Part shown: in pieces, positions 26,574-39,903 of the stretch | Layout of the letters: every line of letters begins with the position of its first letter | Position numbering within the stretch: the stretch's first letter is position 1 | From: a virus | Strand: one strand, 5' to 3' | DNA length: 64,000 nucleotides | IMG/VR virus record: IMGVR_UViG_3300012931_000017 | Location: 33,415-97,414 of that record | Program-made: the position numbers and the translations under genes | Notes under the pieces: generated by a model | Seen by the model: only the letters and a program-made list of their open reading frames with translations | The model's database searches: none | Told to the model about the DNA's origin: nothing

Positions 26574-27038
26574 ATGGGTGAGTGGAAACAGAATTTTTAT
26601 GATATAATTAATAAGGAAAAATATATTGGTTTAAAAACACCTTATTATAGATCTAGTTGGGAACAGAGATTTATGTACTTATTAGATTCTAATAATAGTG
26701 TAACAAAATGGTCTTCTGAATCAATAAAAATTCCTTATACTTTGGATGGTAAAACTCATACTTATATTCCTGATTTTTATTTTGAAGCTGTAACGAGAGA
26801 AGGAAAAGTTGATAGATTTATAGTTGAAATAAAACCTTATAATCAAGGGCCAACACAAGGAGAACATGGAATTTATGTTCCTAAACCTCCAAAAAATAAT
26901 AATTCAAAAGCTTTAAAACGATATTATGTAGAACTTAAAACTTATAAAAAGAATGCACAAAAGTGGTTAGCTGCAAAACTATATTGTGAAAAAATTGGAA
27001 TTAAGTTTAAAGTTCTCACAAAAACCGATATTTTTTAA
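26574..27038 (+). CDS. putative PD-(D/E)xK-fold nuclease
   Basis: 'IPDFYFE...RFIVEIKP' D...E-x-K arrangement. Confidence 0.35.
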   Translation: MGEWKQNFYDIINKEKYIGLKTPYYRSSWEQRFMYLLDSNNSVTKWSSESIKIPYTLDGKTHTYIPDFYFEAVTREGKVDRFIVEIKPYNQGPTQGEHGIYVPKPPKNNNSKALKRYYVELKTYKKNAQKWLAAKLYCEKIGIKFKVLTKTDIF

Positions 27039-27059
27039 AAATTAAACGAGGTTATTTTT

Positions 27060-27251
27060 ATGATAATTGATGGTTGGGGACCAACTCAATCTTTCTTAAG
27101 AAATGTTCAAACTATGAATATTGAACAAATTAAAAGTTCCATTGAATATTTGGAAATGTTATTGAATAGTGAAAAGTTCTCTTATGATCCAAAAATGATT
27201 ATTAAACGATTAGCTGATTTAAAAGAACAAGTTGAGTTTTTAACTACATGA
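27060..27251 (+). CDS. hypothetical small protein (63 aa)
   Basis: ORF track. Confidence 0.25.
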   Translation: MIIDGWGPTQSFLRNVQTMNIEQIKSSIEYLEMLLNSEKFSYDPKMIIKRLADLKEQVEFLTT

Positions 27252-27760
27252 ATATAATATTTCCTTTAAAAACTACATTTATAGATTATCCTGATAATGA
27301 AAGTGAAGCTATATTAATATTTTTTATGGGTTGTGACAATAATTGTTCTGGTTGTCATAATATAAATTTTAAAAATTATAATTATAAAAATGCTAAGGTT
27401 TTCTCACCAACTGATTTAAAACTAGAAATTGATAAATTATCAAAAAGAATTAATTCTAATAAAGTAGTTTTAACTGGTGGAGATCCTTTATCTAAGTTTA
27501 ATATAAATGAAATAAAACAATTGACAATTATATTAAAAAATTATAATTTAATGATATATACAGGACATGATATTGAATATGTAAAGAGAAATGAAATTAA
27601 AAATTTTGCATTTATAAAATGTGGTATTTTTGATATTAATCAAAAGCAAATATCAGAAAAAAATGATATTTTTTTTAAACTTGCATCTAAGAATCAACAA
27701 TTATACGATGCAGATTATAACTTAATAAGTAATACTGGTGTTTATTATTTTAACAATTAA
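27248..27760 (+). CDS. nrdG: anaerobic ribonucleotide reductase activating protein (radical SAM)
   Basis: 'FFMGCDNNCSGCHN' CxxxCxxC cluster; immediately upstream of nrdD. Confidence 0.75.
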   Translation: MNIIFPLKTTFIDYPDNESEAILIFFMGCDNNCSGCHNINFKNYNYKNAKVFSPTDLKLEIDKLSKRINSNKVVLTGGDPLSKFNINEIKQLTIILKNYNLMIYTGHDIEYVKRNEIKNFAFIKCGIFDINQKQISEKNDIFFKLASKNQQLYDADYNLISNTGVYYFNN

Positions 27761-27774
27761 TGGAGATTTAAGAA

Positions 27775-29253
27775 ATGTTTGATAATGATGATAATATTAC
27801 TACTTATAGAACCCTCAAAAATATGAGGAATGCTTTAAAACAATCATTAAAAACTAAATATAACATAGAAGATGATGATAAAATAGACCAAATATTATCA
27901 ATTCATGGAATTACCAAAGACAGATTTGATTTTATAAAAACTATTGAATCTACTATAATGGATAAATTAAATGATGTTTCTATTGATGCAAATTCAAATA
28001 AAAATGAAAAAACTATTGAAGCTATAACACAAGAAGCTATTGCTCCAGTTAAAAAAGCTATTGGTTATGATTTTTTGTATAGACAAATGAAAATACTCTA
28101 TGGAAAAGAAGAAGCTAAAAGACTTACTGGTGAAATGTACGATTTAAGTTTAGGACTATCAGATAGCACTAACATTATGAAGTGTTATTGTTGGGCTCTT
28201 GATGCTTCAAAGTTAGTAACTATAGGAAGAGAATTTGGGCAGCTTTGGTCAAAACCATCAAAACGAGTTTCTAGCTATATTTCAGCTCTTTGTGAAACTA
28301 TTCATCAAATGAGTAGCCATTTAGCTGGTGCAATAGCCATCGGTACTTTTTTTCTTGATGTTGCTCATCTGTCTTTATTTAAAGAACAGTTTGATTTAAG
28401 GGAACTAAAAACTAATTCTGAATTTAGAAAAAAATTAGAAAATGAATTTCAGCAATTTATACATTCGGTTAATCATTTAAGTAGAAATGGTAGTGAAAGC
28501 CCGTTTACAAATATTAGTGTATTCGATAGAATAAAACTAAAATCTCTTATTAATGACATGAGTTGGTATTTTCCTTTTGAAGAACTTCCTATCAATCATC
28601 CAAAAGAATTAGAAACGGAAGAACAACAAAAAGAATTCTATATTAACTATATTATAGATTATGTAATGGAAATTCAAAATATATTTCTTGACTTCTTTGA
28701 TAAAGGTGATGTAAGTAAAGATGGTTTACCATATAGATTCCCTCTAGTTACGGTTAATATTTCAAAGAAAAAATGGGGAGACAAAGAAATAATTGAGGAT
28801 TTGGATTTTCTTAAGTCTATATGTAAAAGGGAAATTTATCGTTATAATATTTTTACTAGTGAAGGAACTAAAATTTCAAGCTGTTGTTTTTCTGGAAATG
28901 AGATAATAAAAATCAAAACAAAAGACGGTGAGTCTATATATAGTTCATTAAAAAATTTTGTTGAACTATATTCCGAAGATTTAGAATTTGAACAAAAAAT
29001 TCCTGACGAATATTATATTGATTCGTTGAATAATGAAAATAAAATAGAAAGTACCAAAATACTTGGTGTATTAAAAAAGAAAAATAATACAGGAAAATTA
29101 ATATCTATAACAAGTAATGGAAGAAATATTAAAATTACACCGGATCATATTTTAAAAGTTTTAGATAAAACAACTAAAAAAGAAAAAGAAATTACTGCAT
29201 TAGAATTGAAAAATAATTTTAATAACTATTTGATTCCATTAAATTTAAAATAA
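27775..29253 (+). CDS. nrdD: anaerobic ribonucleoside-triphosphate reductase NrdD, N-terminal extein (27775-28884) fused in frame to the N-terminal half of an intein (28885-29250), ending at a stop codon
   Basis: NrdD-like N-extein. Intein block A 'CFSGNEIIKIKTKDG' starts at the second Cys of 'SSCC', block B is 'ITPDHIL', and a TAA stop follows 'IPLNLK'. Confidence 0.8.
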   Translation: MFDNDDNITTYRTLKNMRNALKQSLKTKYNIEDDDKIDQILSIHGITKDRFDFIKTIESTIMDKLNDVSIDANSNKNEKTIEAITQEAIAPVKKAIGYDFLYRQMKILYGKEEAKRLTGEMYDLSLGLSDSTNIMKCYCWALDASKLVTIGREFGQLWSKPSKRVSSYISALCETIHQMSSHLAGAIAIGTFFLDVAHLSLFKEQFDLRELKTNSEFRKKLENEFQQFIHSVNHLSRNGSESPFTNISVFDRIKLKSLINDMSWYFPFEELPINHPKELETEEQQKEFYINYIIDYVMEIQNIFLDFFDKGDVSKDGLPYRFPLVTVNISKKKWGDKEIIEDLDFLKSICKREIYRYNIFTSEGTKISSCCFSGNEIIKIKTKDGESIYSSLKNFVELYSEDLEFEQKIPDEYYIDSLNNENKIESTKILGVLKKKNNTGKLISITSNGRNIKITPDHILKVLDKTTKKEKEITALELKNNFNNYLIPLNLK

Positions 29254-29261
29254 TTGCTTCC

Positions 29262-29310
29262 TGTTGTTTTTAGTTAAAGTATAAATATTGATAATACTTT
29301 AAACAACAGG
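29262..29310 (+). promoter_or_regulatory. stem-loop between the Int-N stop and the endonuclease-gene RBS
   Basis: CCTGTTGTTT...AAACAACAGG 10-bp inverted repeat, followed by AGGAGATAATTATG. Confidence 0.5.
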
Positions 29311-29318
29311 AGATAATT

Positions 29319-30503
29319 ATGATTGAGTGTCCATATTGTAAAAACCTTTACTCTAATATAAAAACCCATATATTTTATAAACATGGTAAAAGTTATGAAG
29401 ATTTTAAACGGGAATTTCCTAATTTTGGAAAGACTCAAGAAACTGTTTCTTATTGGGACGGCATTTATTATAAATGTGAATTTTGTAAAAATGTTGGAAA
29501 AACTAAACGCAAATCAATGTTATTAAATCATTATAAAAAATATCATTATAATGAATTAAACGAAAGTCAAAAAATAGAGGTTGATAAATATGTTGAATCT
29601 AAAAACAAATTGGATCTAAATGAATTAATAACCTGTCCAATTTGTGAAAGAAAAGTAAGAATGTTTAAACAACATATTGAGAGAGGTCATTGTTTAAATT
29701 GGAATAAATTTTGTGAAGATTATAATTTTGATAAAAATTTAAAATGTATTATTACTAAAAATCACAAAAATCAATTGTCCATTAATAAGAAACTATTTTA
29801 TCAATCTGAAATTGGATTAGATCAAAGAAAACATTTATCAAAAAAATTTTCAGGAAATGGTAATTTTGCAAAACTAAAATATGTTAGAGAAAAAATTTCA
29901 AAATCAATGTTGAGTAATAATAGAACAAATCAACAATTAGGTAGTTTTGGTTTAATAGTTAATTTCATTTATAATAACCAAGAATATTTTTGTAGAAGTT
30001 TTGTTGAATTTAGAATTTTATTTGCTTTACTTGAAAATAATATTCCGTTTGAATATGAAAAAAATAGATTTTTATATGAATTAGATAGTGGTTTAAAACG
30101 GATTTATATTAGTGATTTGAAAATAAACGACCATATATATGAAATCAAAGCATTTTCTGGAGTTAATATAGAGGAAGGAAAATTTAAGGGTTTTGATGTT
30201 TACAATAAAAATATAAGAATCATTATAGAGAAATCTGGTTTTTCTTTTAAAATAGTAAATTATTCTATGCTTATGGATGAACTAAATTTAGAAAAAAATC
30301 CTGATTTTTATTATGCAAATAAAATAAAAGAAATGTTAGAAAAAAATGAAATTAAAAAATTGCAATTTCTGGTTTTTTCACGAAGTAAATTGAAAAGCAA
30401 TTTTTTTAAAAAATACAACATAGATATAGAAAAATATGCTTGTGTTAATTATAAAGAATTTATAAAAGAAAATGGAGATAAAATAAATGATAACTTGGTG
30501 TGA
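29319..30503 (+). CDS. free-standing homing-endonuclease-like protein: three C2H2-like zinc fingers plus a C-terminal PD-(D/E)xK/Vsr-like nuclease domain
   Basis: 'CPYC...HIFYKH', 'CEFC...HYKKYH', 'CPIC...HIERGHC' fingers; C-terminal 'ISDLKINDHIYEIKAF'. Confidence 0.55.
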   Translation: MIECPYCKNLYSNIKTHIFYKHGKSYEDFKREFPNFGKTQETVSYWDGIYYKCEFCKNVGKTKRKSMLLNHYKKYHYNELNESQKIEVDKYVESKNKLDLNELITCPICERKVRMFKQHIERGHCLNWNKFCEDYNFDKNLKCIITKNHKNQLSINKKLFYQSEIGLDQRKHLSKKFSGNGNFAKLKYVREKISKSMLSNNRTNQQLGSFGLIVNFIYNNQEYFCRSFVEFRILFALLENNIPFEYEKNRFLYELDSGLKRIYISDLKINDHIYEIKAFSGVNIEEGKFKGFDVYNKNIRIIIEKSGFSFKIVNYSMLMDELNLEKNPDFYYANKIKEMLEKNEIKKLQFLVFSRSKLKSNFFKKYNIDIEKYACVNYKEFIKENGDKINDNLV

Positions 30504-31512
30504 AATCGAAAAGGTTGAAGAACTTGAAGATAATAACTATGTCTATGATATAGAACTTGAAAATAATCATTATTTTCCTTCTAATGGAATTGTTAGTCAT
30601 AATTGTAGACTAGTTTCGCAGCCAGAAATGTTAAAATTAGCTTCTCAAGTAAATTCGTTTGGTGGAGGTGGTTCTATTTCTTTAGGTAGTCATAGAGTAT
30701 GTACTATAAATTTTAATAGAATTGCATTAGAATGTAAGGATTATGATGATTATTTTAAAATTTTGGAAAATAGACTAGAAGATTCAACCAAAATTTTAGT
30801 TTCTCATAAAGAGCTTATAAAAAATCTAACTAAACAAGGTTTACAAATGTTTATTTCTAATGGTTGGATAAACATGAACAGAATGTTTTCTACTTTTGGT
30901 TTAATAGGTATTTATGAAGCTTGTCAATATATGAATGAAAAATTCGGTTCTTATGATGATTTAGAAAAAGATATATTAGTTTTTGTTAATAAAAAGGTTG
31001 AAGAATTATCCGTAAAATATAACATTAGTGGAAATATTGAGCAAATTCCTGCTGAAAGTTTTGCTATTAGATTGTGTAATGCTGATAAAATTCTTTTTGG
31101 TGAGGATAAAGTAAATTATAAAATTTATGCAAACCAGTTTATACCACTTTGGAATGACGCTACTATTTGGGAAAAAATGGAAGCCGATGGTAGACTTAAT
31201 AAACTTATTACAGGGGGCTCTCTTGTCCATTGTCAAATTGGAGAACGAGTTACATCAAAACAAGCAGAAAAAATAATTAGATACGCCGTTCAAAGTGGGT
31301 GTGAACATTTTGCTCTTAACTCTGTATGGTCTCAATGTGAGCACAATCACGCTTCTTTTGGGAAAGTACTAATTTGTCCTATATGTGGTGGAAAAATAGT
31401 AGATTATTTAACTAGAGTTGTAGGATTCTTTACTCCAGTTTCTTCTTGGACTAAAATTAGAAGAGAGTGGGAATTTGAAAATAGAAAATTTAATAATTTA
31501 GATCAAATATAA
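30487..31512 (+). CDS. nrdD: Int-C (39 aa) fused to the NrdD C-terminal extein (glycyl-radical domain)
   Basis: Int-C blocks F/G '...NGIVSHN' then 'CRLVSQPEM...'; C-terminal zinc site 'CEHNHASFGKVLICPICGG' and glycyl-radical-like 'TRVVGFFTP'. Confidence 0.8.
   Translation: MITWCEIEKVEELEDNNYVYDIELENNHYFPSNGIVSHNCRLVSQPEMLKLASQVNSFGGGGSISLGSHRVCTINFNRIALECKDYDDYFKILENRLEDSTKILVSHKELIKNLTKQGLQMFISNGWINMNRMFSTFGLIGIYEACQYMNEKFGSYDDLEKDILVFVNKKVEELSVKYNISGNIEQIPAESFAIRLCNADKILFGEDKVNYKIYANQFIPLWNDATIWEKMEADGRLNKLITGGSLVHCQIGERVTSKQAEKIIRYAVQSGCEHFALNSVWSQCEHNHASFGKVLICPICGGKIVDYLTRVVGFFTPVSSWTKIRREWEFENRKFNNLDQI
31399..31492 (+). repeat. 94-bp direct repeat, copy 1 (nrdD 3' end)
   Basis: Identical to 32469-32562. 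Confidence 0.9.
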
Positions 31513-31616
31513 ATACACATAAGGATATAGAGGACAGTGATTGATCGTCATTTTCTTCCACTAAAGAATTACTTTATATCCTCTTACTTTTATAAACCTG
31601 TAGTGGAGGTGTCGTT

Positions 31617-32585
31617 ATGTGTATTCCTAATTCAATTTATGTAAGTGTAAAACCCGAAACATTAATTTTAGATCTTAGGATTAAAAGACATAAAGTAAAA
31701 ATGGTTTATTTTATTGTATATAAAACTACTAATTTAATAAATCATAAGATTTATGTTGGAATTCATTTACAATTAAATAATTTAGATTTTGATGGTTATT
31801 TGGGTTCTGGTAAACTTATAAAGCTTTCTATAAAGAAATATGGAAAAGAAAATTTTAAAAGAGAAATTATTGAAGTTTGTAAATCTTGGAATGAACTAGA
31901 AGAAAGAGAAGTTTATTGGATTGAATATTTTCACACTTATATTAAAAAATATCCTAATGACAAAGGGATGAATTGTAGCATTGGAGGTACAAGTGGGTTA
32001 AGTGGATGCAAAAATAAACATTGGAGTAAAGGTAGAACTAAGAATGATTGTGAATCTTTAATGAGAATGGCAGAATCAAGAAAAGGTTTAAATAATCCAG
32101 TACATAAAATACCAAAAGAAAAAATGAAATTAATAAATGAAAAAAGATCAAAAATTATGATTGGGATATTAAAAGGTAGAAAAGTTCCTTGGATTGATAA
32201 ATCTGCTAAAACATTAAAATTACGATACAAAAATGAACCAGAATTAAAAGAATATTGTAAAACTTTTAAATATATTATTAAAATTATATTTAAAAATGAA
32301 TCTAAAGTAGAATATGGTTTCTGTTTAGAAGATATTTCTAAGAAATATAATGTAAGTTTGGGTGCCATTTATTCTATAACCCGTAAAAGAAGAAAAAATA
32401 TTTGGGTTGATGATTTAACCTTTGAAATTATACATACTTTTGTTCCAGTTGTTAAATTAGAAAAAGTTGTAGATTATTTAACTAGAGTTGTAGGATTCTT
32501 TACTCCAGTTTCTTCTTGGACTAAAATTAGAAGAGAGTGGGAATTTGAAAATAGAAAATTTACAAAAATACCTGAAGTTCAATAA
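31617..32585 (+). CDS. GIY-YIG homing endonuclease whose 3' end is a duplicated copy of the nrdD 3' end
   Basis: 'VYFIVYKTTNLINHKIYVGIH...YLGSG' GIY-YIG motif. The last 31 codons '...VDYLTRVVGFFTPVSSWTKIRREWEFENRKF' are identical to the NrdD C-terminus. Confidence 0.8.
   Translation: MCIPNSIYVSVKPETLILDLRIKRHKVKMVYFIVYKTTNLINHKIYVGIHLQLNNLDFDGYLGSGKLIKLSIKKYGKENFKREIIEVCKSWNELEEREVYWIEYFHTYIKKYPNDKGMNCSIGGTSGLSGCKNKHWSKGRTKNDCESLMRMAESRKGLNNPVHKIPKEKMKLINEKRSKIMIGILKGRKVPWIDKSAKTLKLRYKNEPELKEYCKTFKYIIKIIFKNESKVEYGFCLEDISKKYNVSLGAIYSITRKRRKNIWVDDLTFEIIHTFVPVVKLEKVVDYLTRVVGFFTPVSSWTKIRREWEFENRKFTKIPEVQ
32469..32562 (+). repeat. 94-bp direct repeat, copy 2
   Basis: See 31399..31492. Confidence 0.9.
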
Positions 32586-32847
32586 AGAAATAATAAAAAT
32601 GATAACTAAAAAATCTTGGTTTGAATTTAGAAACACCGGACTATTATTAATAATTAATCAAATTCTGCATATTTTTGGTTGGGCGATTGTAATTGATACA
32701 GATGATGAAGGAAATCTTATAGATTGTTATCCTGCAAGAGTTAAATTTAGAGGTTTTTCTGAGGATTCTGTTTCAGCTGCCTATATAAAACTTAGTAAAT
32801 TTATGAAAGATAATGTAGATTCTTTAGTTGATGAAGCAAATTCTTAA
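32545..32847 (+). CDS. hypothetical protein (100 aa)
   Basis: ORF track; overlaps the 3' end of the GIY-YIG ORF. Confidence 0.25.
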   Translation: MKIENLQKYLKFNKEIIKMITKKSWFEFRNTGLLLIINQILHIFGWAIVIDTDDEGNLIDCYPARVKFRGFSEDSVSAAYIKLSKFMKDNVDSLVDEANS

Positions 32848-32856
32848 TAATTTTTA

Positions 32857-32890
32857 TTGACAATTATACTTTAAAATTTAATATTAATAT
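32857..32890 (+). promoter_or_regulatory. conserved early-promoter element upstream of queE, followed by a short hairpin (ATCCAGAGAAGAAATTCTTTGGAT)
   Basis: TTGACAATTATACTTTAAAATTTAATATTAATAT. Confidence 0.6.
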
Positions 32891-32953
32891 CCAGAGAAGA
32901 AATTCTTTGGATATTTTTATTTTGTAAAACTTAAAAATTGGACTAATTAAAAA

Positions 32954-33625
32954 ATGAAAATAATTGAAAAATACGCCGGTTTTCAAGGCGAAGGAAAATA
33001 TCAAGGTAGAAACTCATTGATTCTAAGATTTCCTAATTGCCTTTGTTCGTGTAAATTTTGTGATTCGAAATATTCTTGGTTAAGTCCTAAAATTTTAGAT
33101 ATTCCGGATGAAGAGATATTTAAAGATATAGAAAAATCTGATAATATTATGTTTACTGGTGGAGAACCCTTAATTCCAGAAAATTATGAAGAAATAGAAA
33201 AAATTATAGTTAAGTTTCAAAAACTTAAAACTTATGAAATAGAAACTAATGGAACCATAAATCTTAAAGATAATGCATTAATTTCTTATTTTAAAGAAAA
33301 TATTACATTTAATATTTCACCAAAAAATAATATTGACCAAATTAATATAGATTCTAAAACAGAACCGATTTTATTAAATAATATTAAGTCATATAATTAT
33401 ATTGTGAAATATTTATTTGATTCTTATGAAGATTTGGTTTTTATAACAGAGCAACAAAAAATTTATGATATTCCAAGAAATTTAATTTATGCTCAACCAA
33501 AAGGAACTAATTCAAAAGTATTGAAAGATTTAATAACTAAATACTATGATATAATTATTAGTAAGGGTTGGAATATTTCTTACAGAAGTCATATATTCTT
33601 GTTTGAAAATGATAGAGGATTTTAA
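32954..33625 (+). CDS. queE: 7-carboxy-7-deazaguanine synthase QueE (radical SAM)
   Basis: 'FQGEGKYQGRNSLILRFPNCLCSCKFCDS' radical-SAM cluster in the QueE arrangement; 'FTGGEPL'. Confidence 0.7.
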   Translation: MKIIEKYAGFQGEGKYQGRNSLILRFPNCLCSCKFCDSKYSWLSPKILDIPDEEIFKDIEKSDNIMFTGGEPLIPENYEEIEKIIVKFQKLKTYEIETNGTINLKDNALISYFKENITFNISPKNNIDQINIDSKTEPILLNNIKSYNYIVKYLFDSYEDLVFITEQQKIYDIPRNLIYAQPKGTNSKVLKDLITKYYDIIISKGWNISYRSHIFLFENDRGF

Positions 33626-33673
33626 TAGTACAATAACAAAGATATTTAAAACTGAAACTAATTTTAAGGAGAT

Positions 33674-34045
33674 ATGATGATTCTAAAACTTTACACAGAA
33701 ACTGTAATTGATATTGCTCATTATTTGAGCGGGTATGCTGGAAATTGTAGTAATACTCATGGCCATTCGGAAAAAATATGTATTTGGGTTGAAGGTGATA
33801 GTAGATGGAAAAATGATGTAGGAATTCTTTTTGATTTTGCTTCTGTTAAAAAAATTAAAGAAAAATATGATCACAGAATGCTTAATGAAATTGAACCTTT
33901 TGATAAAATTAATCCAACTGCAGAAAATATTTCTGAAGTAATTTATAATGATTTAAAAAATGAAAGACCCGAATTAAAATTTAAAGTTAGAGTTTATGAA
34001 ACATATGTTGGTAAAGAAACTTATTGTGAACTCGGTGATTTTTAA
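33674..34045 (+). CDS. queD: 6-carboxy-5,6,7,8-tetrahydropterin synthase QueD
   Basis: 'CSNTHGHSE' Cx3HGH zinc/catalytic motif of the PTPS/QueD family; about 120 aa. Confidence 0.8.
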   Translation: MMILKLYTETVIDIAHYLSGYAGNCSNTHGHSEKICIWVEGDSRWKNDVGILFDFASVKKIKEKYDHRMLNEIEPFDKINPTAENISEVIYNDLKNERPELKFKVRVYETYVGKETYCELGDF

Positions 34046-34178
34046 ATTGATTCCATTGATTAAACTAAGATGTAAAGAAACTGTTAAGAAGTTACCTAAA
34101 GTTATTCCACCAAAGAAAGGGAAACAAAAACCCTTTCAAAGAAGAAAGCGAGTTGATTTAGATGAAAACCAACAATAA
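33996..34178 (+). CDS. possible small basic protein (60 aa, K/R-rich); may be spurious
   Basis: ORF track; overlaps the queD 3' end in another frame; 'KKLPKVIPPKKGKQKPFQRRKR'. Confidence 0.15.
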   Translation: MKHMLVKKLIVNSVIFKLIPLIKLRCKETVKKLPKVIPPKKGKQKPFQRRKRVDLDENQQ

Positions 34179-34632
34179 TTCTTATATTATGACTTGGGAC
34201 GATTTAATTAAACGAGTTCAATATCTTCAGGATGATATTTATACTTATTTAGGAGAGTTTAATAGACTAAAAATATATGGTGTTCCGAGAGGTGGTCTTA
34301 TGTTAGCTTCAGTATTTACAACTCTTGGTTGGAATGAATTAGTATTTGATCCTAATAAAGCCGATATAATTATTGATGATATTATTGATAGTGGTGCAAC
34401 TAAAAAATATTATACCGAAAAGTATAATAAACCATTCTTTGCTCTTATTGATAAACAAAATAATGAAGAACATAAAGAACTTGGATGGTTAGTTTTTCCG
34501 TGGGAATCCTCAAAACCAGATACTCTAAATGATAATTTACTTCGTGTTCTTCAGTTTTATAATTTACCTGATAGTTATTTACCTGCATTAAATGATAATA
34601 TTGAATTGTTTATTAAAAATTTAGATTATTAA
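34162..34632 (+). CDS. small type-I phosphoribosyltransferase-domain protein
   Basis: PRPP-binding motif 'ADIIIDDIIDSGAT'; 'GVPRGG'. Confidence 0.55.
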   Translation: MKTNNNSYIMTWDDLIKRVQYLQDDIYTYLGEFNRLKIYGVPRGGLMLASVFTTLGWNELVFDPNKADIIIDDIIDSGATKKYYTEKYNKPFFALIDKQNNEEHKELGWLVFPWESSKPDTLNDNLLRVLQFYNLPDSYLPALNDNIELFIKNLDY

Positions 34633-34641
34633 TGATTTTTA

Positions 34642-34675
34642 TTGACAATTATACTTTAAAATTTAATATTTAATT
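34642..34675 (+). promoter_or_regulatory. conserved early-promoter element upstream of folE
   Basis: TTGACAATTATACTTTAAAATTTAATATTTAATT. Confidence 0.6.
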
Positions 34676-34697
34676 AAACATTTATGAAAGGATCATT

Positions 34698-35396
34698 TTG
34701 GAAACATTAGTTAAAGTTTGTGCTAAATGTGGAACTTATGAAGACTTAACCGAATTTGATAATATAGTTATTTGTAAGTCATGTCTTAAAAAGTATTCTC
34801 TGAAAAATAATATTCGTAAGTTTACAGGCATTCCAGAAATAGAACGTGCCGGAGAATTAATATTAGAAGGTCTTAAAAATACTTTTGGTTTGGATATAAC
34901 CGATCCTAATTTCAAAGATACTCCTAAACGTATGGCTAGAGCTTATTATGAAATCTTTGAAGGAATAAATTCCAAAGAAGAAATTGATGATATATTATCT
35001 ACTAGTTTTCCTTCACAATATAATGCAATGGTGGTTGCTAAAGATATACATTGTTTTTCAACCTGTCCTCATCATATATTACCAGTTGAATATAAAGTTA
35101 ATTTGGGTTATATTCCTTCAGAACAAGTTTTAGGAATATCTAAATTATCAAGATTGGTTGAATTATTAGCTAAACAACCTAAATTACAAGAAGATTTTAC
35201 TAATGATATAGTTAATATTCTTGAATCTAATATTAAACCTAATGGTGTTATTTGTCAAGTTAGAGGAAGACATTTGTGTATGGCTATGAGAGGTGCTAAA
35301 CAACCTAATTCTTGGACTCTTACAAGTACAATTACTGGAGCATTTAATAGATTAGAAACTCGAAATGAATTTCAAATGTTGATAACGGGTGAATAA
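34698..35396 (+). CDS. folE: GTP cyclohydrolase I
   Basis: 'KDTPKRMARAY', 'CPHHILP', 'GISKLSRLV', 'GRHLCMAMRG' - all four signature blocks of FolE. Confidence 0.9.
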   Translation: METLVKVCAKCGTYEDLTEFDNIVICKSCLKKYSLKNNIRKFTGIPEIERAGELILEGLKNTFGLDITDPNFKDTPKRMARAYYEIFEGINSKEEIDDILSTSFPSQYNAMVVAKDIHCFSTCPHHILPVEYKVNLGYIPSEQVLGISKLSRLVELLAKQPKLQEDFTNDIVNILESNIKPNGVICQVRGRHLCMAMRGAKQPNSWTLTSTITGAFNRLETRNEFQMLITGE

Positions 35397-36730
35397 TGAT
35401 TGATATAAATGAATACTTTAAAAAGGTTAATTATTATATAGCAACCTCCGATGAAATGATCGGAATTGATGCTAATTATGATTATTTGAACGATAATTTT
35501 TCTCACGAAAATAAACAAGAACGAGTTAACGTAACCTATTATGATTTGATTGATGACAAATATATGGATGGAGTTTTAACATCCAAAGCATTAGTTACTG
35601 GTAGACAAGTAGAAACTTATACTTCATTAGGAGGACTAAGGAAATACTTTAATATTCCAAAAAGTTATTATTTGATGGGTGATTGTGGAGCACCTACATA
35701 CTTTAACGAAGATAATCCACCATTTACGATTAGTGATCTTTTAGATTTTTATGAAAATCTTGATTTAGATTTTGGTATAACATTAGATCATATTGTTGAT
35801 ATGGTTGATATGACTAACAGAATTAAACCAACAAAAACTCATATTTATCGAAGAGAACTTTCTTGTAAAAATGCAATTGAAATGCTAAAATTAGTTAAAG
35901 AAAGAAAATCGAAAATATATTTATTAGGTTCTGTACAAGGTTGGAGTCCCGAATCTTATAAGCAATCATTAATTGAGTTAGGTGAAGCAGGATTTAAATA
36001 TTGTGCTATTGGTGGATTAACTATGACAGGTAATACTGATATAGTATCACAAATTCTTAGTTATTTAACACCAACAGCTAAGAAATATGGAATTAAATTA
36101 CATTTACTTGGGTTTGGTAGATTAGCTCTATTATCATCATTTTTAAAATATGATATATTGAGTTCTATTGATAATTCTACACCATTATTAAATGCCAGTA
36201 ATGCACCAACATCGGCTTATTTCTTTAATTTAAAAAATAAGTTTTATAAATATGACACTATTTATCTTCCAATTTTTAGTAAAGGAGCTCCTTCCTTGAA
36301 TAAGAAGATAAAGAATCTTTATGAAAATGATTATAGTGATATTATTGTTGAGTTAGATGAATTTTCCCATAATATAGTTAAACAATTAAGAGAATTTGAT
36401 GAATTAGAAAACTCAAAAGAAATAAAAAATAAAGAATTATTTAATTCAATATTAAGAAATATACAAAAGTTTGAGTTAATGCATCGTAAATATTCTGGAA
36501 CTAATCATGATGGAATGAATACTTATTTAAACGAAATTAAATTAGTATTAAATAGCAAATGTTGGAAAAACTGTAGTTGTCCTCTTTGTAAAACTTATGG
36601 TATTAATATGGTTACTTTTAGATCTCAAATGAGAAATAAATTGAGAGGTATTCATAATTTAAAACATTATTACGATTATTTTTGTTGTGAGTTAAATAAA
36701 AATAATAAAATGAACAAATTTTTACTTTAG
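35396..36730 (+). CDS. dpdA: tRNA-guanine-transglycosylase-family protein, probable DNA 7-deazaguanine transglycosylase DpdA
   Basis: 'LGSVQGW...CAIGGLTM' (TGT 'GIVQGG...AIGGLSVGE'), 'LHLLGFG...DSSTP', zinc site 'CSCPLC'. Lies inside the queCDE/folE cluster, as dpdA does in phage 7-deazaguanine systems. Confidence 0.7.
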   Translation: MIDINEYFKKVNYYIATSDEMIGIDANYDYLNDNFSHENKQERVNVTYYDLIDDKYMDGVLTSKALVTGRQVETYTSLGGLRKYFNIPKSYYLMGDCGAPTYFNEDNPPFTISDLLDFYENLDLDFGITLDHIVDMVDMTNRIKPTKTHIYRRELSCKNAIEMLKLVKERKSKIYLLGSVQGWSPESYKQSLIELGEAGFKYCAIGGLTMTGNTDIVSQILSYLTPTAKKYGIKLHLLGFGRLALLSSFLKYDILSSIDNSTPLLNASNAPTSAYFFNLKNKFYKYDTIYLPIFSKGAPSLNKKIKNLYENDYSDIIVELDEFSHNIVKQLREFDELENSKEIKNKELFNSILRNIQKFELMHRKYSGTNHDGMNTYLNEIKLVLNSKCWKNCSCPLCKTYGINMVTFRSQMRNKLRGIHNLKHYYDYFCCELNKNNKMNKFLL

Positions 36731-36739
36731 ATTGATTTT

Positions 36740-36958
36740 ATGGATGAAATGAATAATATAACAAAACAGATTAATGATAATGTTATTGGAGAACTCTATA
36801 ATAGATATACTATAATATTAAATGAACACCTTCCAGAAAAAACTTTGTGTGTTAGTTCAGATATTTTTAACACTTTTAAAAAAGATAAAAAGTTTGAGGA
36901 AAATATAACTAAAATGAAAAGAATTATAGAAGAAATGGACGATGATAAAAATGTATAA
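36740..36958 (+). CDS. hypothetical small protein (72 aa)
   Basis: ORF track. Confidence 0.2.
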   Translation: MDEMNNITKQINDNVIGELYNRYTIILNEHLPEKTLCVSSDIFNTFKKDKKFEENITKMKRIIEEMDDDKNV

Positions 36959-37382
36959 TCATATTTCTGTAGATTTTGATGGAACTCTATTTGTTAATGG
37001 TGAAATTGATAAAGAACTTGTTGATAAACTTAATAAACAATATAATGGTAAGGTTTTTATATTTACCAGTCGGAGTTGGGGAGATTATTTTTTAATTAAG
37101 AATCTTATAACTGAAGCTAAATTAAAGTTTGAAGGAATAGTTTGTGGTAAGTTAATTGCAGGTAAATATCTTGATGATAGAAATATTAGTATTGATGAGT
37201 TTAAAGATTCATCCAATAAAATATCTAATAACAATGAAGAAATATCACGAAATTATCTTATTTGCTTCACTTGTCATTTAGCAAAAACATCTCCGTATGA
37301 TGATGGTAAATTTTGTGCATTTATTATAGATAAACACGATTGGTCTGAACTACCACCTAATTGCCCAAGAAGTAGGTGGTAG
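36942..37382 (+). CDS. HAD-superfamily phosphatase-like protein with a C-terminal Cys/His cluster
   Basis: 'ISVDFDGTLF' DxDGT motif I, 'IFTSR' motif II-like; C-terminal 'CFTCH...CAF...CPRS'. Confidence 0.45.
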   Translation: MIKMYNHISVDFDGTLFVNGEIDKELVDKLNKQYNGKVFIFTSRSWGDYFLIKNLITEAKLKFEGIVCGKLIAGKYLDDRNISIDEFKDSSNKISNNNEEISRNYLICFTCHLAKTSPYDDGKFCAFIIDKHDWSELPPNCPRSRW

Positions 37383-37400
37383 AAGAAAGTAGATAACTAA

Positions 37401-37595
37401 ATGAATAATGAAACTAAACTTAAAAGACTGAATGATAAAATGGATATTCTAAGAAGACAAATATCTGATTTAGAATATACTATTAAACAAGAAAAACAAG
37501 CTAAATGTACTAATCATGATTTTGAATATTTCTGTAGTTCTCATAATGATAGTGTTTATAGATGCATTAAATGTGGTTTAATGGAGGAAAGATGA
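37401..37595 (+). CDS. hypothetical small zinc-ribbon protein (64 aa)
   Basis: 'CTNHDFEYFCSSH...CIKCG'. Confidence 0.2.
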   Translation: MNNETKLKRLNDKMDILRRQISDLEYTIKQEKQAKCTNHDFEYFCSSHNDSVYRCIKCGLMEER

Positions 37596-38449
37596 GCTAT
37601 TCAACTATTACATTCACTCGTGGTGATAAAGATTTAATTCCTACATTTATAACTATATCAATGCAAGATTATAAACCAAAAGAAAGTATTTTGGTAATTG
37701 ATAGTAGATGGATACATGGCAACTATACTTTATATCATCAAATATCATTGATTGAAAATATTTTAGTTCCATTAAATATTAAATTTTCTGTTTATATTAG
37801 TGGAAAATTACATAATAATTTTGCTAAGGTAAAGAATTTTGGTTATTCAAAAGTAGAAACCTCTCATGTATTATATGTTGAAGATGATTGTTTAATTCCT
37901 GCAAACTATGCAAACAATTTGTTTTGTTTGATGATAAGAAATTATTATTATGGTTCATCGGGTGGTATTCAATTACTTATAGAAGATTCTGATGATATTC
38001 AAGAAAAACCAATTTTTGATAAAATTGAATTACCAGAAGAAAAATATTACCAAAGACTCAAAGTCGAAAATGGTAAACTAGAATATGATTCTATTAAACA
38101 TCAATGCTACCTATATAAACATAGTTCATCGGAAAAAGGTAGAACAATACCATGTCATGCATTATTGCATACTTATATGTTAAATATGGAGGTTTTACGA
38201 GAGGTTGGAATGTGGGATGAGAATGCTCCTGAACATGGATCACTAATCTTTGAAGAAATGGATGTAATGTTTAGAATGCACTTAAAAGGATATATAAACT
38301 GGATTCATACAGATTTGATTATGTATCATTATAGGAAATCAAATAGAAGAACTGAAAATGATAAAATATCCCAAAGAGAAGCTTTAAGAGAAGAAAGAAA
38401 ATTATATTTTGGTCAGAAATACATTAGAGAGGGTTTAATAAATGGGTAA
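37571..38449 (+). CDS. hypothetical protein (292 aa) inside the deazaguanine cluster; possible glycosyltransferase or oxygenase fold
   Basis: 'YVEDDCLIP' DxD-like; no firm assignment. Confidence 0.3.
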   Translation: MWFNGGKMSYSTITFTRGDKDLIPTFITISMQDYKPKESILVIDSRWIHGNYTLYHQISLIENILVPLNIKFSVYISGKLHNNFAKVKNFGYSKVETSHVLYVEDDCLIPANYANNLFCLMIRNYYYGSSGGIQLLIEDSDDIQEKPIFDKIELPEEKYYQRLKVENGKLEYDSIKHQCYLYKHSSSEKGRTIPCHALLHTYMLNMEVLREVGMWDENAPEHGSLIFEEMDVMFRMHLKGYINWIHTDLIMYHYRKSNRRTENDKISQREALREERKLYFGQKYIREGLING

Positions 38450-39008
38450 TGAAATATACGAATATAAAAATAATGAAGATTTTAGTGTAACAACTAAAAC
38501 TAGAATTCATGAATTTCTTGGAATTATGAATAAAATTATAAAATTTAAATCTGGATTACATACAATAGCTGATGTTTGTTGTGGAAATAAGTTTATTGGT
38601 AATGCTATACAATCTTATGTACCAACTAGGACTTGTGATTTTTATGATTATTATCCTATTGATTCCACTATATCTAAAATTGATTTGAATTTTAAAGTTG
38701 AATCTAAGATAAAATATGATTTGGTTATATTTAGTCATTCTTTAGAACATTTTGAAGATTCAGGAATGGTTTTAAATTCATTAAAAACTTTTCTTAATGC
38801 TTCTGGACAATTGATTATTGTAGTTCCTAATTGTGAATATAATATAAAAGCTAGAGATCCTAATCTTGGTCATTTTAAATTTTTTGATTTTAATAGCTTA
38901 AAAGAAGAAGTTAATAAAGTTTTTACCATTGATTTTATTGCTGAAAATAATCAAGATGTTGGTTTTGAAGAACTTTGGATAGTTTGTTCTAATAAATTGA
39001 AAAGGTAA
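38442..39008 (+). CDS. class I SAM-dependent methyltransferase
   Basis: Motif I 'IADVCCGNKFIG'; 'DLVIFSHSLEHFED'. Confidence 0.55.
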   Translation: MGNEIYEYKNNEDFSVTTKTRIHEFLGIMNKIIKFKSGLHTIADVCCGNKFIGNAIQSYVPTRTCDFYDYYPIDSTISKIDLNFKVESKIKYDLVIFSHSLEHFEDSGMVLNSLKTFLNASGQLIIVVPNCEYNIKARDPNLGHFKFFDFNSLKEEVNKVFTIDFIAENNQDVGFEELWIVCSNKLKR

Positions 39009-39012
39009 GTTT

Positions 39013-39903
39013 ATGAATACTCAAAAGGAAGTTAAATATTCTGATTTAGTGAAAAATAAATTTCCTGAATTATTTGCACCTTATATAGATGGAGTTTCAT
39101 TTGAAATGAATAAGCATATTTTGATTTTATATTCTGGTGGATTAGACTCAAAAATATTAGAACGTTATGCACAAGTAACTAATCCAAATGCAAAAATAAC
39201 TAAAGTTTGGTTTGATATTGGACAAGAATATAATGAAAAAGAACGCGCTTGTCTTGATTCATCTGTTGAAATTAGAAAAATAGACTATCTTAGAGATGTG
39301 AAAGGAGTTTCTAAAGATGGTAATGTTTGTGGTTCTATTATGATTCCTGGTCGAAATGCTGTATTAGCTATGTTAGGAGCTTCAATATATCTTCCTGATG
39401 AAATTTGGATGGGTGCTGTAAAAGGCGAAGATAACTCTGGAGCTACTGATAAAAATAGAGAATTTGTTAGATTGTTTAATGATTGTATTGGTTATGTACT
39501 TTCACCTTACAAAAAAGTAACTCTTAGATTTCCTTTTGTTGAAACTTTTAAAGGAAAATCAGAAATTGTTTCATGGGCTTTACGTAATGGATTAAGTAAG
39601 GAAGAATTGATGGCTACTTCATCTTGTTTATCGGGTGAAGCTGGTAATTGTGGAACCTGTATTGTTTGTGTTAGAAGGTGGGGTATTTTTTATAGTTTGG
39701 GTTTTGAAGAGAAGTATAATAATAACTTATTTTCTGATAAGAATGCTATAGATTATTTGATTAATGTATTAATTGATGATGGTTCTCATTATGATGAATA
39801 TAGAAAAAGAGAGGTAATTCCTGCACTAAAAAAGAAATTTAATGTTAATAATGAAGATGAATTACTTAAAATTTTAAATGATTTAAAAGAGAGGTGTAAA
39901 TGA
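39013..39903 (+). CDS. queC: 7-cyano-7-deazaguanine synthase QueC (PP-loop ATPase)
   Basis: PP-loop 'LYSGGLDS'; C-terminal zinc cluster 'CLSGEAGNCGTCIVC'. Confidence 0.8.
   Translation: MNTQKEVKYSDLVKNKFPELFAPYIDGVSFEMNKHILILYSGGLDSKILERYAQVTNPNAKITKVWFDIGQEYNEKERACLDSSVEIRKIDYLRDVKGVSKDGNVCGSIMIPGRNAVLAMLGASIYLPDEIWMGAVKGEDNSGATDKNREFVRLFNDCIGYVLSPYKKVTLRFPFVETFKGKSEIVSWALRNGLSKEELMATSSCLSGEAGNCGTCIVCVRRWGIFYSLGFEEKYNNNLFSDKNAIDYLINVLIDDGSHYDEYRKREVIPALKKKFNVNNEDELLKILNDLKERCK

Follow-up and report, generated by a model that had tools for sequence, protein, structure and literature searches.

An anaerobic ribonucleotide reductase gene probably fractured by a split intein, with a putative homing endonuclease gene between the intein halves

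The window analysed here is the whole of a 64,000-nucleotide (nt) stretch of viral DNA (IMG/VR record IMGVR_UViG_3300012931_000017, positions 33,415 to 97,414), and our subject is its nrdD gene, which encodes the class III (anaerobic) ribonucleotide reductase (RNR). The gene is very probably fractured: two polypeptides of 492 and 341 amino acids (aa), each composed of a part of NrdD and a part of an intein, would be joined by splicing in trans, and a homing endonuclease gene would lie between the two halves. Membership in class III is indicated by the NRDD domain, the SCCR radical-loop motif, the C-terminal glycyl-radical motif and an adjacent NrdG gene, all of which are present. The fractured-gene reading was put forward in a preliminary description of the DNA and has held up on the strength of the intein blocks, the matches to solved inteins and the gap-free excision given below. 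That description also placed the locus in a complete phage context. The nrdG gene does indeed adjoin nrdD, but the window belongs to a metagenomic contig (97.8 kb) and not to an isolated or demonstrably complete phage.

The three open reading frames (ORFs) of the locus, read from the ORF list and the raw sequence, lie on the plus strand, as does nrdG. The N-half ORF (27775-29253) begins with a NrdD N-extein of 370 aa (27775..28884; Pfam NRDD, E=1.7e-17) that terminates in ...GTKISSC. From nt 28885 (aa 371 of the N-half) the sequence CFSGNEIIKIKTKDG continues the N-extein in frame (CFSGNE) as an intein N-domain, Int-N, of 122 aa plus a TAA stop codon at 29251 (28885..29253). Cys1 is encoded by 28885-28887, block B (ITPDH) by 29134-29148, and a partial Pfam Intein_splicing match covers aa 415-479. 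The middle ORF (29319..30503) encodes the putative free-standing homing endonuclease of 394 aa. The C-half ORF (30487-31512) begins with an intein C-domain, Int-C, of 39 aa (30487..30603; Pfam Intein_splicing, E=1.3e-6, aa 2-39 against profile positions 118-155) in which block F, VYDIELENNHYF, is encoded by 30541-30576 and block G, NGIVSHN, by 30583-30603. It continues as a NrdD C-extein of 302 aa plus a stop codon (30604..31512; Pfam NRDD, E=5.9e-53), the first residue of which is the +1 Cys of SC|CR and which carries the C-x3-H...CxxC motif (31336-31386) and the glycyl-radical motif RVVGFF (31414-31431). The Pfam NRDD model is divided between the two ORFs, profile positions 49-234 falling on the N-half and 252-560 on the C-half. 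Directly upstream of nrdD lies nrdG (27248..27760), the gene of the class III RNR activase (Pfam Fer4_12, E=5.6e-11; Radical_SAM, E=6.8e-8; phrog_626, anaerobic RNR small subunit, E=3.2e-17). These elements, including the Cys that follows Int-C, lie where the preliminary description had placed them. It had also allowed that the two ORFs might simply be two different genes without intein motifs; all four intein blocks (A, B, F and G) were found, together with the +1 Cys, and they are conserved across six lineages.

The split could in principle result from a frameshift or a faulty assembly, a concern already raised in that description. Both NrdD halves are in one shared frame and the 394-aa ORF is in another, and because the frames differ a single nonsense or frameshift error cannot account for the layout. 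Moreover, the 492-aa and 394-aa ORFs are identical on contigs of three separate samples (ERZ27227667, SRR6436070 and SRR15532677), which are independent assemblies, and between the window and the SRR6436070 contig there is 100% identity over the contig's 10,092 nt. An assembly artefact is excluded as far as sequence data allow.

With its exteins joined, NrdD is 672 aa long and reads ...GTKISSC|CRLVSQ.... When the spliced product was aligned with five uninterrupted 670-aa NrdDs there was no gap or extra residue at SSCCRL, which confirms the insertion point at SSC|CRL; the proteins are ~80% identical and the product is colinear with P0274-P0281. The N-extein is 83% identical to uninterrupted 670-aa P0274, one of the nearest among the matches listed, with the match confined to the extein part. 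Over residues 48-667 the spliced product also matches Thermotoga maritima NrdD (4coi; E=2.1e-63). Two loci with an uninterrupted nrdD, L018 (an NCBI assembly) and L019, keep the gene order of the window (5'-3' exonuclease, TnsA-like protein, nrdG, nrdD) and can be taken as true empty-site alleles. Their site reads ...GAAGGAACAAAATTAAGCTCGTGC|TGTAGACTTTTAAAC..., and the predicted junction peptide of the spliced NrdD is ...GTKISSCCRLVSQPEMLK. Against these two loci dN/dS is 0.09-0.13 for the N-extein and 0.09-0.22 for both exteins, values that are rough because dS is near saturation. A recombinant origin of the C-extein (71% identical to that of P0274, compared with 83% for the N-extein) was considered and dropped, as two uninterrupted relatives show a like gradient (79.7% vs 69.0%). 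A group I intron behind either interruption of nrdD was likewise rejected, there being no Rfam match within 27000-33500 at E<=1.

The junction falls within the SC|CR motif and SCCR is complete only after splicing. Splicing would use as its +1 nucleophile the Cys that stands opposite T. maritima C330 and T4 Cys290, the latter being the radical cysteine of T4 NrdD. The motif of T. maritima NrdD (328-SCCR-331) corresponds to 288-MGCR-291 of T4, and replacement of either Cys (C329A or C330A) leaves the enzyme inactive (PMC4493059).

The interrupting sequence is supported as a naturally split class 1 intein of the HINT fold by several profile and single-sequence comparisons. Fused Int-N plus Int-C, used as a single phmmer query, matched the M. 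jannaschii KlbA intein (2jmz; E=5.9e-8) and a CDC21 intein (6rpq; E=1.3e-7). A profile built from six lineages improved these matches to 2.1e-12 and 2.3e-10, respectively, matched gp41-1 at 2e-4 and also reached Pho RadA and Spl DnaX, and the alignments to solved inteins continue across the split point. All six lineages have Cys1, a terminal Asn and the +1 Cys, and C1, F2 and G4 of block A are invariant. In the four type-1 lineages, one of which is the window, block B retains its Thr and His, and the penultimate His is conserved as well. In the window Int-C ends in VYDIELENNHYF...NGIVSHN|C, which gives blocks F and G with His-Asn and then the +1 Cys. The two parts are oppositely charged, with a net charge of +8 for the final 60 residues of Int-N and -8 for Int-C. 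The same charge polarity was described for the gp41-1 split intein by Dassa et al. (PMC2677866). At the same SC|CRL site L014 (3390-6005) and L016 (2397-5339) have a split intein of a second type, with a block B without His (TPNQ or TPDQ) and an end that reads SN or EN instead of HN. In L014 (NCBI GCA_001684375.1) this intein is split by a 111-nt spacer without an endonuclease gene, and in L016 an additional ribbon-helix-helix ORF stands ahead of the endonuclease gene.

Splicing in trans is predicted from these features, and the following course may be proposed. Int-N, through its basic C-terminal part, would associate with the acidic Int-C to form the class-1 HINT fold. An N-S acyl shift at Cys1 would be followed by trans-thioesterification onto the +1 Cys, cyclisation of Asn39 of Int-C and an S-N shift, giving the 672-aa NrdD with its SCCR motif restored. 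NrdG, encoded just upstream, would then put the glycyl radical into RVVGFF of the spliced protein.

A competing explanation is that the NrdD fragments assemble non-covalently without splicing and that the intein halves are interaction domains only, as in the case of nrdA of phage Aeh1, which is split by mobE. Three observations weigh against the splicing model. First, Aeh1 NrdA is reported to be a split RNR that works without covalent joining, via interaction domains that stem from a mobile element (PMC3045599). Second, the two halves score 18.6 and 28.8 bits against Pfam Intein_splicing, where the gathering cut-off is 35.8; each half spans only part of the model. Third, the AlphaFold model of the fused intein (single-sequence) is unusable, with a pLDDT of 40. 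The opposite charges of Int-N and Int-C would also favour plain association. However, association does not require Cys1, the terminal Asn and the +1 Cys, which are retained in six diverged lineages, nor the block B Thr and His and the penultimate His, which are retained in the four of type 1. Moreover, the break lies within the SCCR of the radical-transfer loop, where both Cys residues are essential, and thus a free chain end is unlikely to be tolerated there. We therefore consider non-covalent assembly quite improbable. The two explanations differ in the junction-spanning peptide predicted for spliced NrdD, ...GTKISSCCRLVSQ....

The product of the middle ORF is, as judged from its motifs and alignments, a C2H2 zinc-finger protein with a canonical PD-(D/E)xK nuclease domain resembling T7 endonuclease I. 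Its three C2H2 units (C4/C7/H17/H22, C53/C56/H71/H76 and C106/C109/H119/H124; Cx2C...Hx4H) are encoded by 29328-29690, and the nuclease domain, which belongs to the restriction-endonuclease-like fold, extends over about aa 211-350 (29949-30368) with the catalytic set E230, D266, E275 and K277 (E...D...ExK). An exhaustive profile search with a threshold of E<=1e-3 gave 594 relatives; at E<=1e-30 there were about 70 clusters (50% identity). In a 55-member alignment C106, C109, H119, K157, G166, S227, E230, E247, D266, E275 and K277 are invariant. The 55-member profile matched T7 endonuclease I (E=3.8e-8), with E230, D266, E275 and K277 opposite the FRSGLE, PDF and ETK segments of the T7 protein, whose corresponding residues are E20, D55, E65 and K67. 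The same profile matched the designed C2H2 array 2i13 (2.1e-10) and Ros (6.4e-5). Among the 55 family members Pfam recognized ROS_MUCR in 31, zf-C2H2_4 in 31, Phage_endo_I in nine and Tn7_TnsA-like_N in four; the 394-aa window protein itself gave no Pfam match, including GIY-YIG, Phage_endo_I and Tn7_TnsA-like_N. The preliminary description had correctly noted the 394-aa length, the three C2H2-like fingers and the 'D...YEIK' core (here D266...E275-x-K277). It had also called the core Vsr-like, an assignment that is ruled out by the absence of the EDxHD motif and by the canonical ExK set aligned to T7 endonuclease I.

The distribution of this nuclease family is site-specific. Every relative with a readable neighbourhood lies between nrdD Int-N and Int-C: the order N-half, endonuclease ORF, C-half is repeated in L003, L007, L008, L013, L016, L017 and L080, and the partial L011 locus likewise has its nuclease gene between nrdD intein halves; L013, L016, L017, L080 and L011 represent more distant members. 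A word-indexed search found three relatives only, each between nrdD Int-N and Int-C in other phage contigs. The nuclease gene is absent from the close relatives with intact nrdD (L018 and L019) and its presence is patchy, because L014 has a split intein without it. In searches of GenBank phages tblastn gave no match to the 394-aa ORF, the DNA of 27200-33000 gave no match either, and an IMG/VR scan with a four-member endonuclease alignment gave no confirmed relative. Such a site-specific, all-or-none distribution is the signature of a homing element, and we infer that the middle ORF encodes a putative homing endonuclease.

Two members of the family deserve separate mention. P0145 (689 aa) is called as a single ORF that joins a zinc-finger endonuclease, in frame, with Int-C and the NrdD C-extein. 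It might represent a transitional form between endonucleases that stand free and those embedded in an intein, or else an artefact of gene calling or sequencing. In L007 (620-663) ATA stands where the homologous start codon would be and the called ATG lies 33 nt upstream, within the hairpin loop; the real start codon of this homologue is uncertain.

It might be argued that the middle ORF is no mobile homing endonuclease but serves the phage, for instance by resolving DNA junctions as a nuclease or by regulating nrdD through its zinc fingers, and lies at this place by chance. Its nuclease domain is nearest to the T7 endonuclease I / TnsA family, the phage members of which are resolvases, and its zinc fingers resemble the Ros/MucR regulators. 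The window also already encodes a separate endonuclease-I-like protein at 26574-27038. Yet all family members with readable context are exactly between nrdD intein halves, related phages with an uninterrupted nrdD lack the ORF, as does the split locus L014, and its 5' hairpin and 3' overlap match those of other fractured-gene endonucleases, which makes a phage-serving function very improbable. The protein encoded by 26574-27038 is a TnsA-N / T7-endonuclease-I-like PD-(D/E)xK protein (Pfam Tn7_TnsA-like_N, E=6.4e-17). Its synteny is conserved in phages with uninterrupted nrdD, and it has the E...D...ExK core in common with the intein-borne nuclease, with marginal similarity (BLASTP E=0.036). 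The PHROGs label "head closure" for its family looks like a misnomer.

As a homing endonuclease, the middle protein would read DNA with its three C2H2 fingers and cut with its T7-endonuclease-I-like PD-(D/E)xK domain. It probably cuts insert-free nrdD alleles near the SCCRL codons, and repair would then copy the nuclease gene together with both intein halves.

The middle gene is flanked by putative expression signals. The 65-nt spacer that follows the TAA codon folds into a hairpin with a 10-bp stem (-22.4 kcal/mol, z = -5.0), and none of 200 shuffled sequences folds as well. This hairpin (29260..29312, plus strand) lies in the 5' untranslated region (UTR) of the endonuclease gene, with its arms at 29260-29269 and 29301-29310, and a Shine-Dalgarno sequence, AGGAG (29308-29312), lies partly within the 3' arm and precedes the ATG at 29319. 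The 10-bp stem and a ribosome-binding site had been noted in the preliminary description. The hairpin loop contains TATAAATA (29280-29287). Hairpins occur at the equivalent place in L007, L008 and L017, where the stem sequences differ and the Shine-Dalgarno site is covered in each, and exact copies of TATAAATA are found upstream of the homologous nuclease gene in L008 and L080. There is no spacer in L003 and L013, where the nuclease ORF abuts or overlaps the N-half. At its 3' end the nuclease ORF of the window overlaps the start of the Int-C ORF by 17 nt (30487-30503), and GGAG stands 9 nt before the Int-C ATG. No terminator-like sites were found in the spacers between the three ORFs.

Dassa et al. 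read a hairpin, TATAAATA and an overlap of this kind as control by a late promoter and by sequestration of the Shine-Dalgarno sequence, citing work on Aeh1 mobE (PMC2677866), and we infer similar control at the nrdD locus. In read-through transcripts the hairpin would hide the Shine-Dalgarno site of the nuclease gene, the late-promoter-like TATAAATA in the loop would give transcripts that lack the 5' arm, and the 17-nt overlap would couple translation of the Int-C half to that of the nuclease ORF. A point that speaks against the promoter is that TATAAATA is not enriched in the window, which has a GC content of 26% (22 copies found vs 27 expected). The proposed late-promoter use therefore rests on the position of the element and its recurrence in homologous loci. 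Of the 13 plus-strand copies five are intergenic, in a window that is ~88% coding.

A second endonuclease gene has entered nrdD at its 3' end. A 94-nt plus-strand segment of the nrdD 3' end that includes the glycyl-radical codons (31399..31492, copy 1) is repeated with 100% identity at 32469..32562 (copy 2, plus strand), which is the ancestral nrdD 3' end. Between the two begins a 322-aa GIY-YIG homing-endonuclease ORF (31617..32585, plus strand; Pfam SegE_GIY-YIG, E=1.5e-5; phrog_314 homing endonuclease, E=1.5e-26). Its last 39 codons consist of repeat copy 2 and the ancestral nrdD tail (VDYLTRVVGFF...NRKFTKIPEVQ), fused to the ORF in frame. The tail that follows copy 2 (TKIPEVQ) matches, in both protein and DNA, those of relatives with an uninterrupted nrdD such as L018 and L019 (TKIPKD, TKIPE), whereas the tail of copy 1 (NNLDQI) does not. 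Because copy 2 and not copy 1 has the ancestral tail, a cassette of ~1070 bp must have entered the nrdD 3' end, bringing with it a replacement terminus and stop codon. Copy 1 with its new tail NNLDQI and stop codon keeps nrdD intact. In the 5' UTR of the GIY-YIG gene (31508..31624, plus strand) TATAAATA occurs at 31508-31515, and ATACACATAA (31513-31522) pairs with TTATGTGTAT (31615-31624), a pairing that covers the ATG at 31617. ATACACATAA begins inside TATAAATA, and the layout would follow the same control logic as that of the first endonuclease gene.

Although homing endonuclease genes and inteins do pass through cycles of invasion and decay and this nrdD has taken up a second endonuclease gene at its 3' end, it is scarcely credible that nrdD is a decaying pseudogene with a broken intein and unjoined halves in a phage that depends on the host RNR, since the exteins are intact with zero internal stops and the low dN/dS given above against uninterrupted relatives, the same split recurs across numerous clusters of 43-65% identity (among the 120 clusters listed per search, ~24 for N-halves and several dozen for C-halves), nrdG is kept, and the GIY-YIG insertion supplies a replacement nrdD 3' end with the glycyl-radical motif in frame.

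The preliminary description regarded the layout as known mainly from metagenomic fragments. It is not rare: dozens of the 120 clusters listed in each protein search are nrdD halves with an intein part. In the search with the C-half, several dozen proteins of ~335-357 aa start with an Int-C of 35-45 aa. In the search with the N-half, 24 clusters terminate in Int-N and 84 are uninterrupted. The nrdD split-intein layout is common in metagenomes. A sample of 80 NrdD loci from IMG/VR, limited by the search pattern and classed by the residues before CRL, contained 65 loci with no intein at the site, 11 with a contiguous c-st-like intein (the type of Clostridium phage c-st discussed below) and one split with this nuclease. 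Large contiguous c-st-like inteins (...EPYFTLPNGIITHN|CRL) were seen at the same NrdD site in L032, L038, L060, L062, L077, L082, L083, L085, L097 and L098. Because many viral contigs carry c-st-like inteins there, the NrdD SC|CRL site is an intein hot spot. Several further NrdD ORFs, 860-1184 aa long, lack an intein at SC|CRL and may have inteins or other insertions elsewhere. The literature searched gave no split intein of NrdD or anaerobic RNR, and a 2013 survey gives the contiguous c-st intein only, which is not proof of absence.

The fractured-gene layout as such was already known; the host gene, that of a class III RNR, and the endonuclease family are new. The architecture is thereby extended to the third RNR class, and the radical-cysteine site, an intein hot spot already in classes I and II, proves to be one in class III too. 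Our results extend current understanding and overturn none of it. Tentatively, and with slightly less than even confidence, we suggest that the 394-aa protein represents an undescribed homing-endonuclease family, a natural zinc-finger nuclease specialised on the SCCRL-coding nrdD site. The modular C2H2 fingers of this candidate nuclease family suggest a readable, perhaps re-targetable specificity. A naturally split intein family with many diverged variants to compare is also added, and such inteins are raw material for protein-ligation tools. It is possible, if somewhat doubtful, that a number of stages in the evolution of inteins and endonucleases are preserved at a single site in the nrdD locus family; the forms seen there include a contiguous LAGLIDADG intein, a split intein without an endonuclease gene and an endonuclease fused to Int-C (P0145). 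As the uninterrupted alleles are ~80% identical, the model of Dassa et al., in which endonuclease genes enter inteins and create split inteins, is testable by comparison. More speculatively, the adjacent -1 Cys, Cys1 and +1 Cys, the last being the radical cysteine, might make splicing redox-gated, such that NrdD would be built only under reducing conditions.

Downstream of the nrdD locus lies a 7-deazaguanine (queuosine-precursor) gene set (32954-39903), which suggests that the DNA may be modified. Its members, with coordinates converted from the L001 gene table, are a QueE-like radical SAM protein (32954-33625), PTPS/QueD (33677-34045), GTP cyclohydrolase I (34698-35396), a TGT-like protein (35396-36730) and QueC (39013-39903).

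The closest known systems are the fractured genes described in 2009 by Dassa, London, Stoddard, Schueler-Furman and Pietrokovski from Global Ocean Sampling (GOS) metagenome loci of gp41, IMPDH, DnaE, NrdA, NrdJ, ligase, terminase and one unknown gene (PMC2677866). As in those loci, an enzyme gene is broken by a split intein, three ORFs follow one another on one strand and the context is that of a phage. A short non-coding spacer with a hairpin precedes the endonuclease start, there often with TATAAATA, and the 3' end of the endonuclease gene overlaps the Int-C ORF (by 6-69 bp in their loci and by 17 here). The insertion lies at or beside the radical cysteine, as in their RNR fractured genes. 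In contrast to their loci, the host gene is a class III (anaerobic) nrdD, which has 0 occurrences in PMC2677866, and the endonuclease falls outside the GIY-YIG and Vsr-like families of their fractured genes. Both the spacer (65 nt compared with 27-51 nt) and Int-N (122 aa compared with 88-105 aa) are longer.

The NrdD intein of Clostridium phage c-st / D-1873 (AP008983, CST076) has the identical insertion point, between the Cys residues of SC|CRL, and similar blocks, CF.G... and ...YFTLPNGIITHN|CRL (...ASC|CFDG...ITHN|CRL). The c-st intein is part of one polypeptide with a nested LAGLIDADG-type endonuclease and splices in cis, whereas the intein of the window is split and its endonuclease is encoded by a separate gene and has an unrelated fold. 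Judged by this shared site and these blocks, the split nrdD intein is allelic to the known contiguous c-st intein.

In phage Aeh1, too, an RNR large-subunit gene (nrdA) is broken by a free-standing endonuclease gene, mobE, which encodes an HNH enzyme. Translation of mobE is limited by a hairpin over the ribosome-binding site and the gene has a late-promoter element, according to the account in PMC2677866. The two systems differ in that the Aeh1 halves join non-covalently and without an intein (PMC3045599), whereas the full set of splicing residues is found here. The nuclease differs from the Vsr-like/EDxHD endonucleases (I-Bth0305I, PDB 3r3p) in that it has no EDxHD motif and a C2H2 array replaces the NUMOD helices as the DNA-binding part. 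T7 endonuclease I and TnsA-N are structure-selective resolvases or transposase subunits without zinc fingers, whereas the window protein combines a T7-endonuclease-I-like domain with three C2H2 fingers and is associated with a single genomic site.

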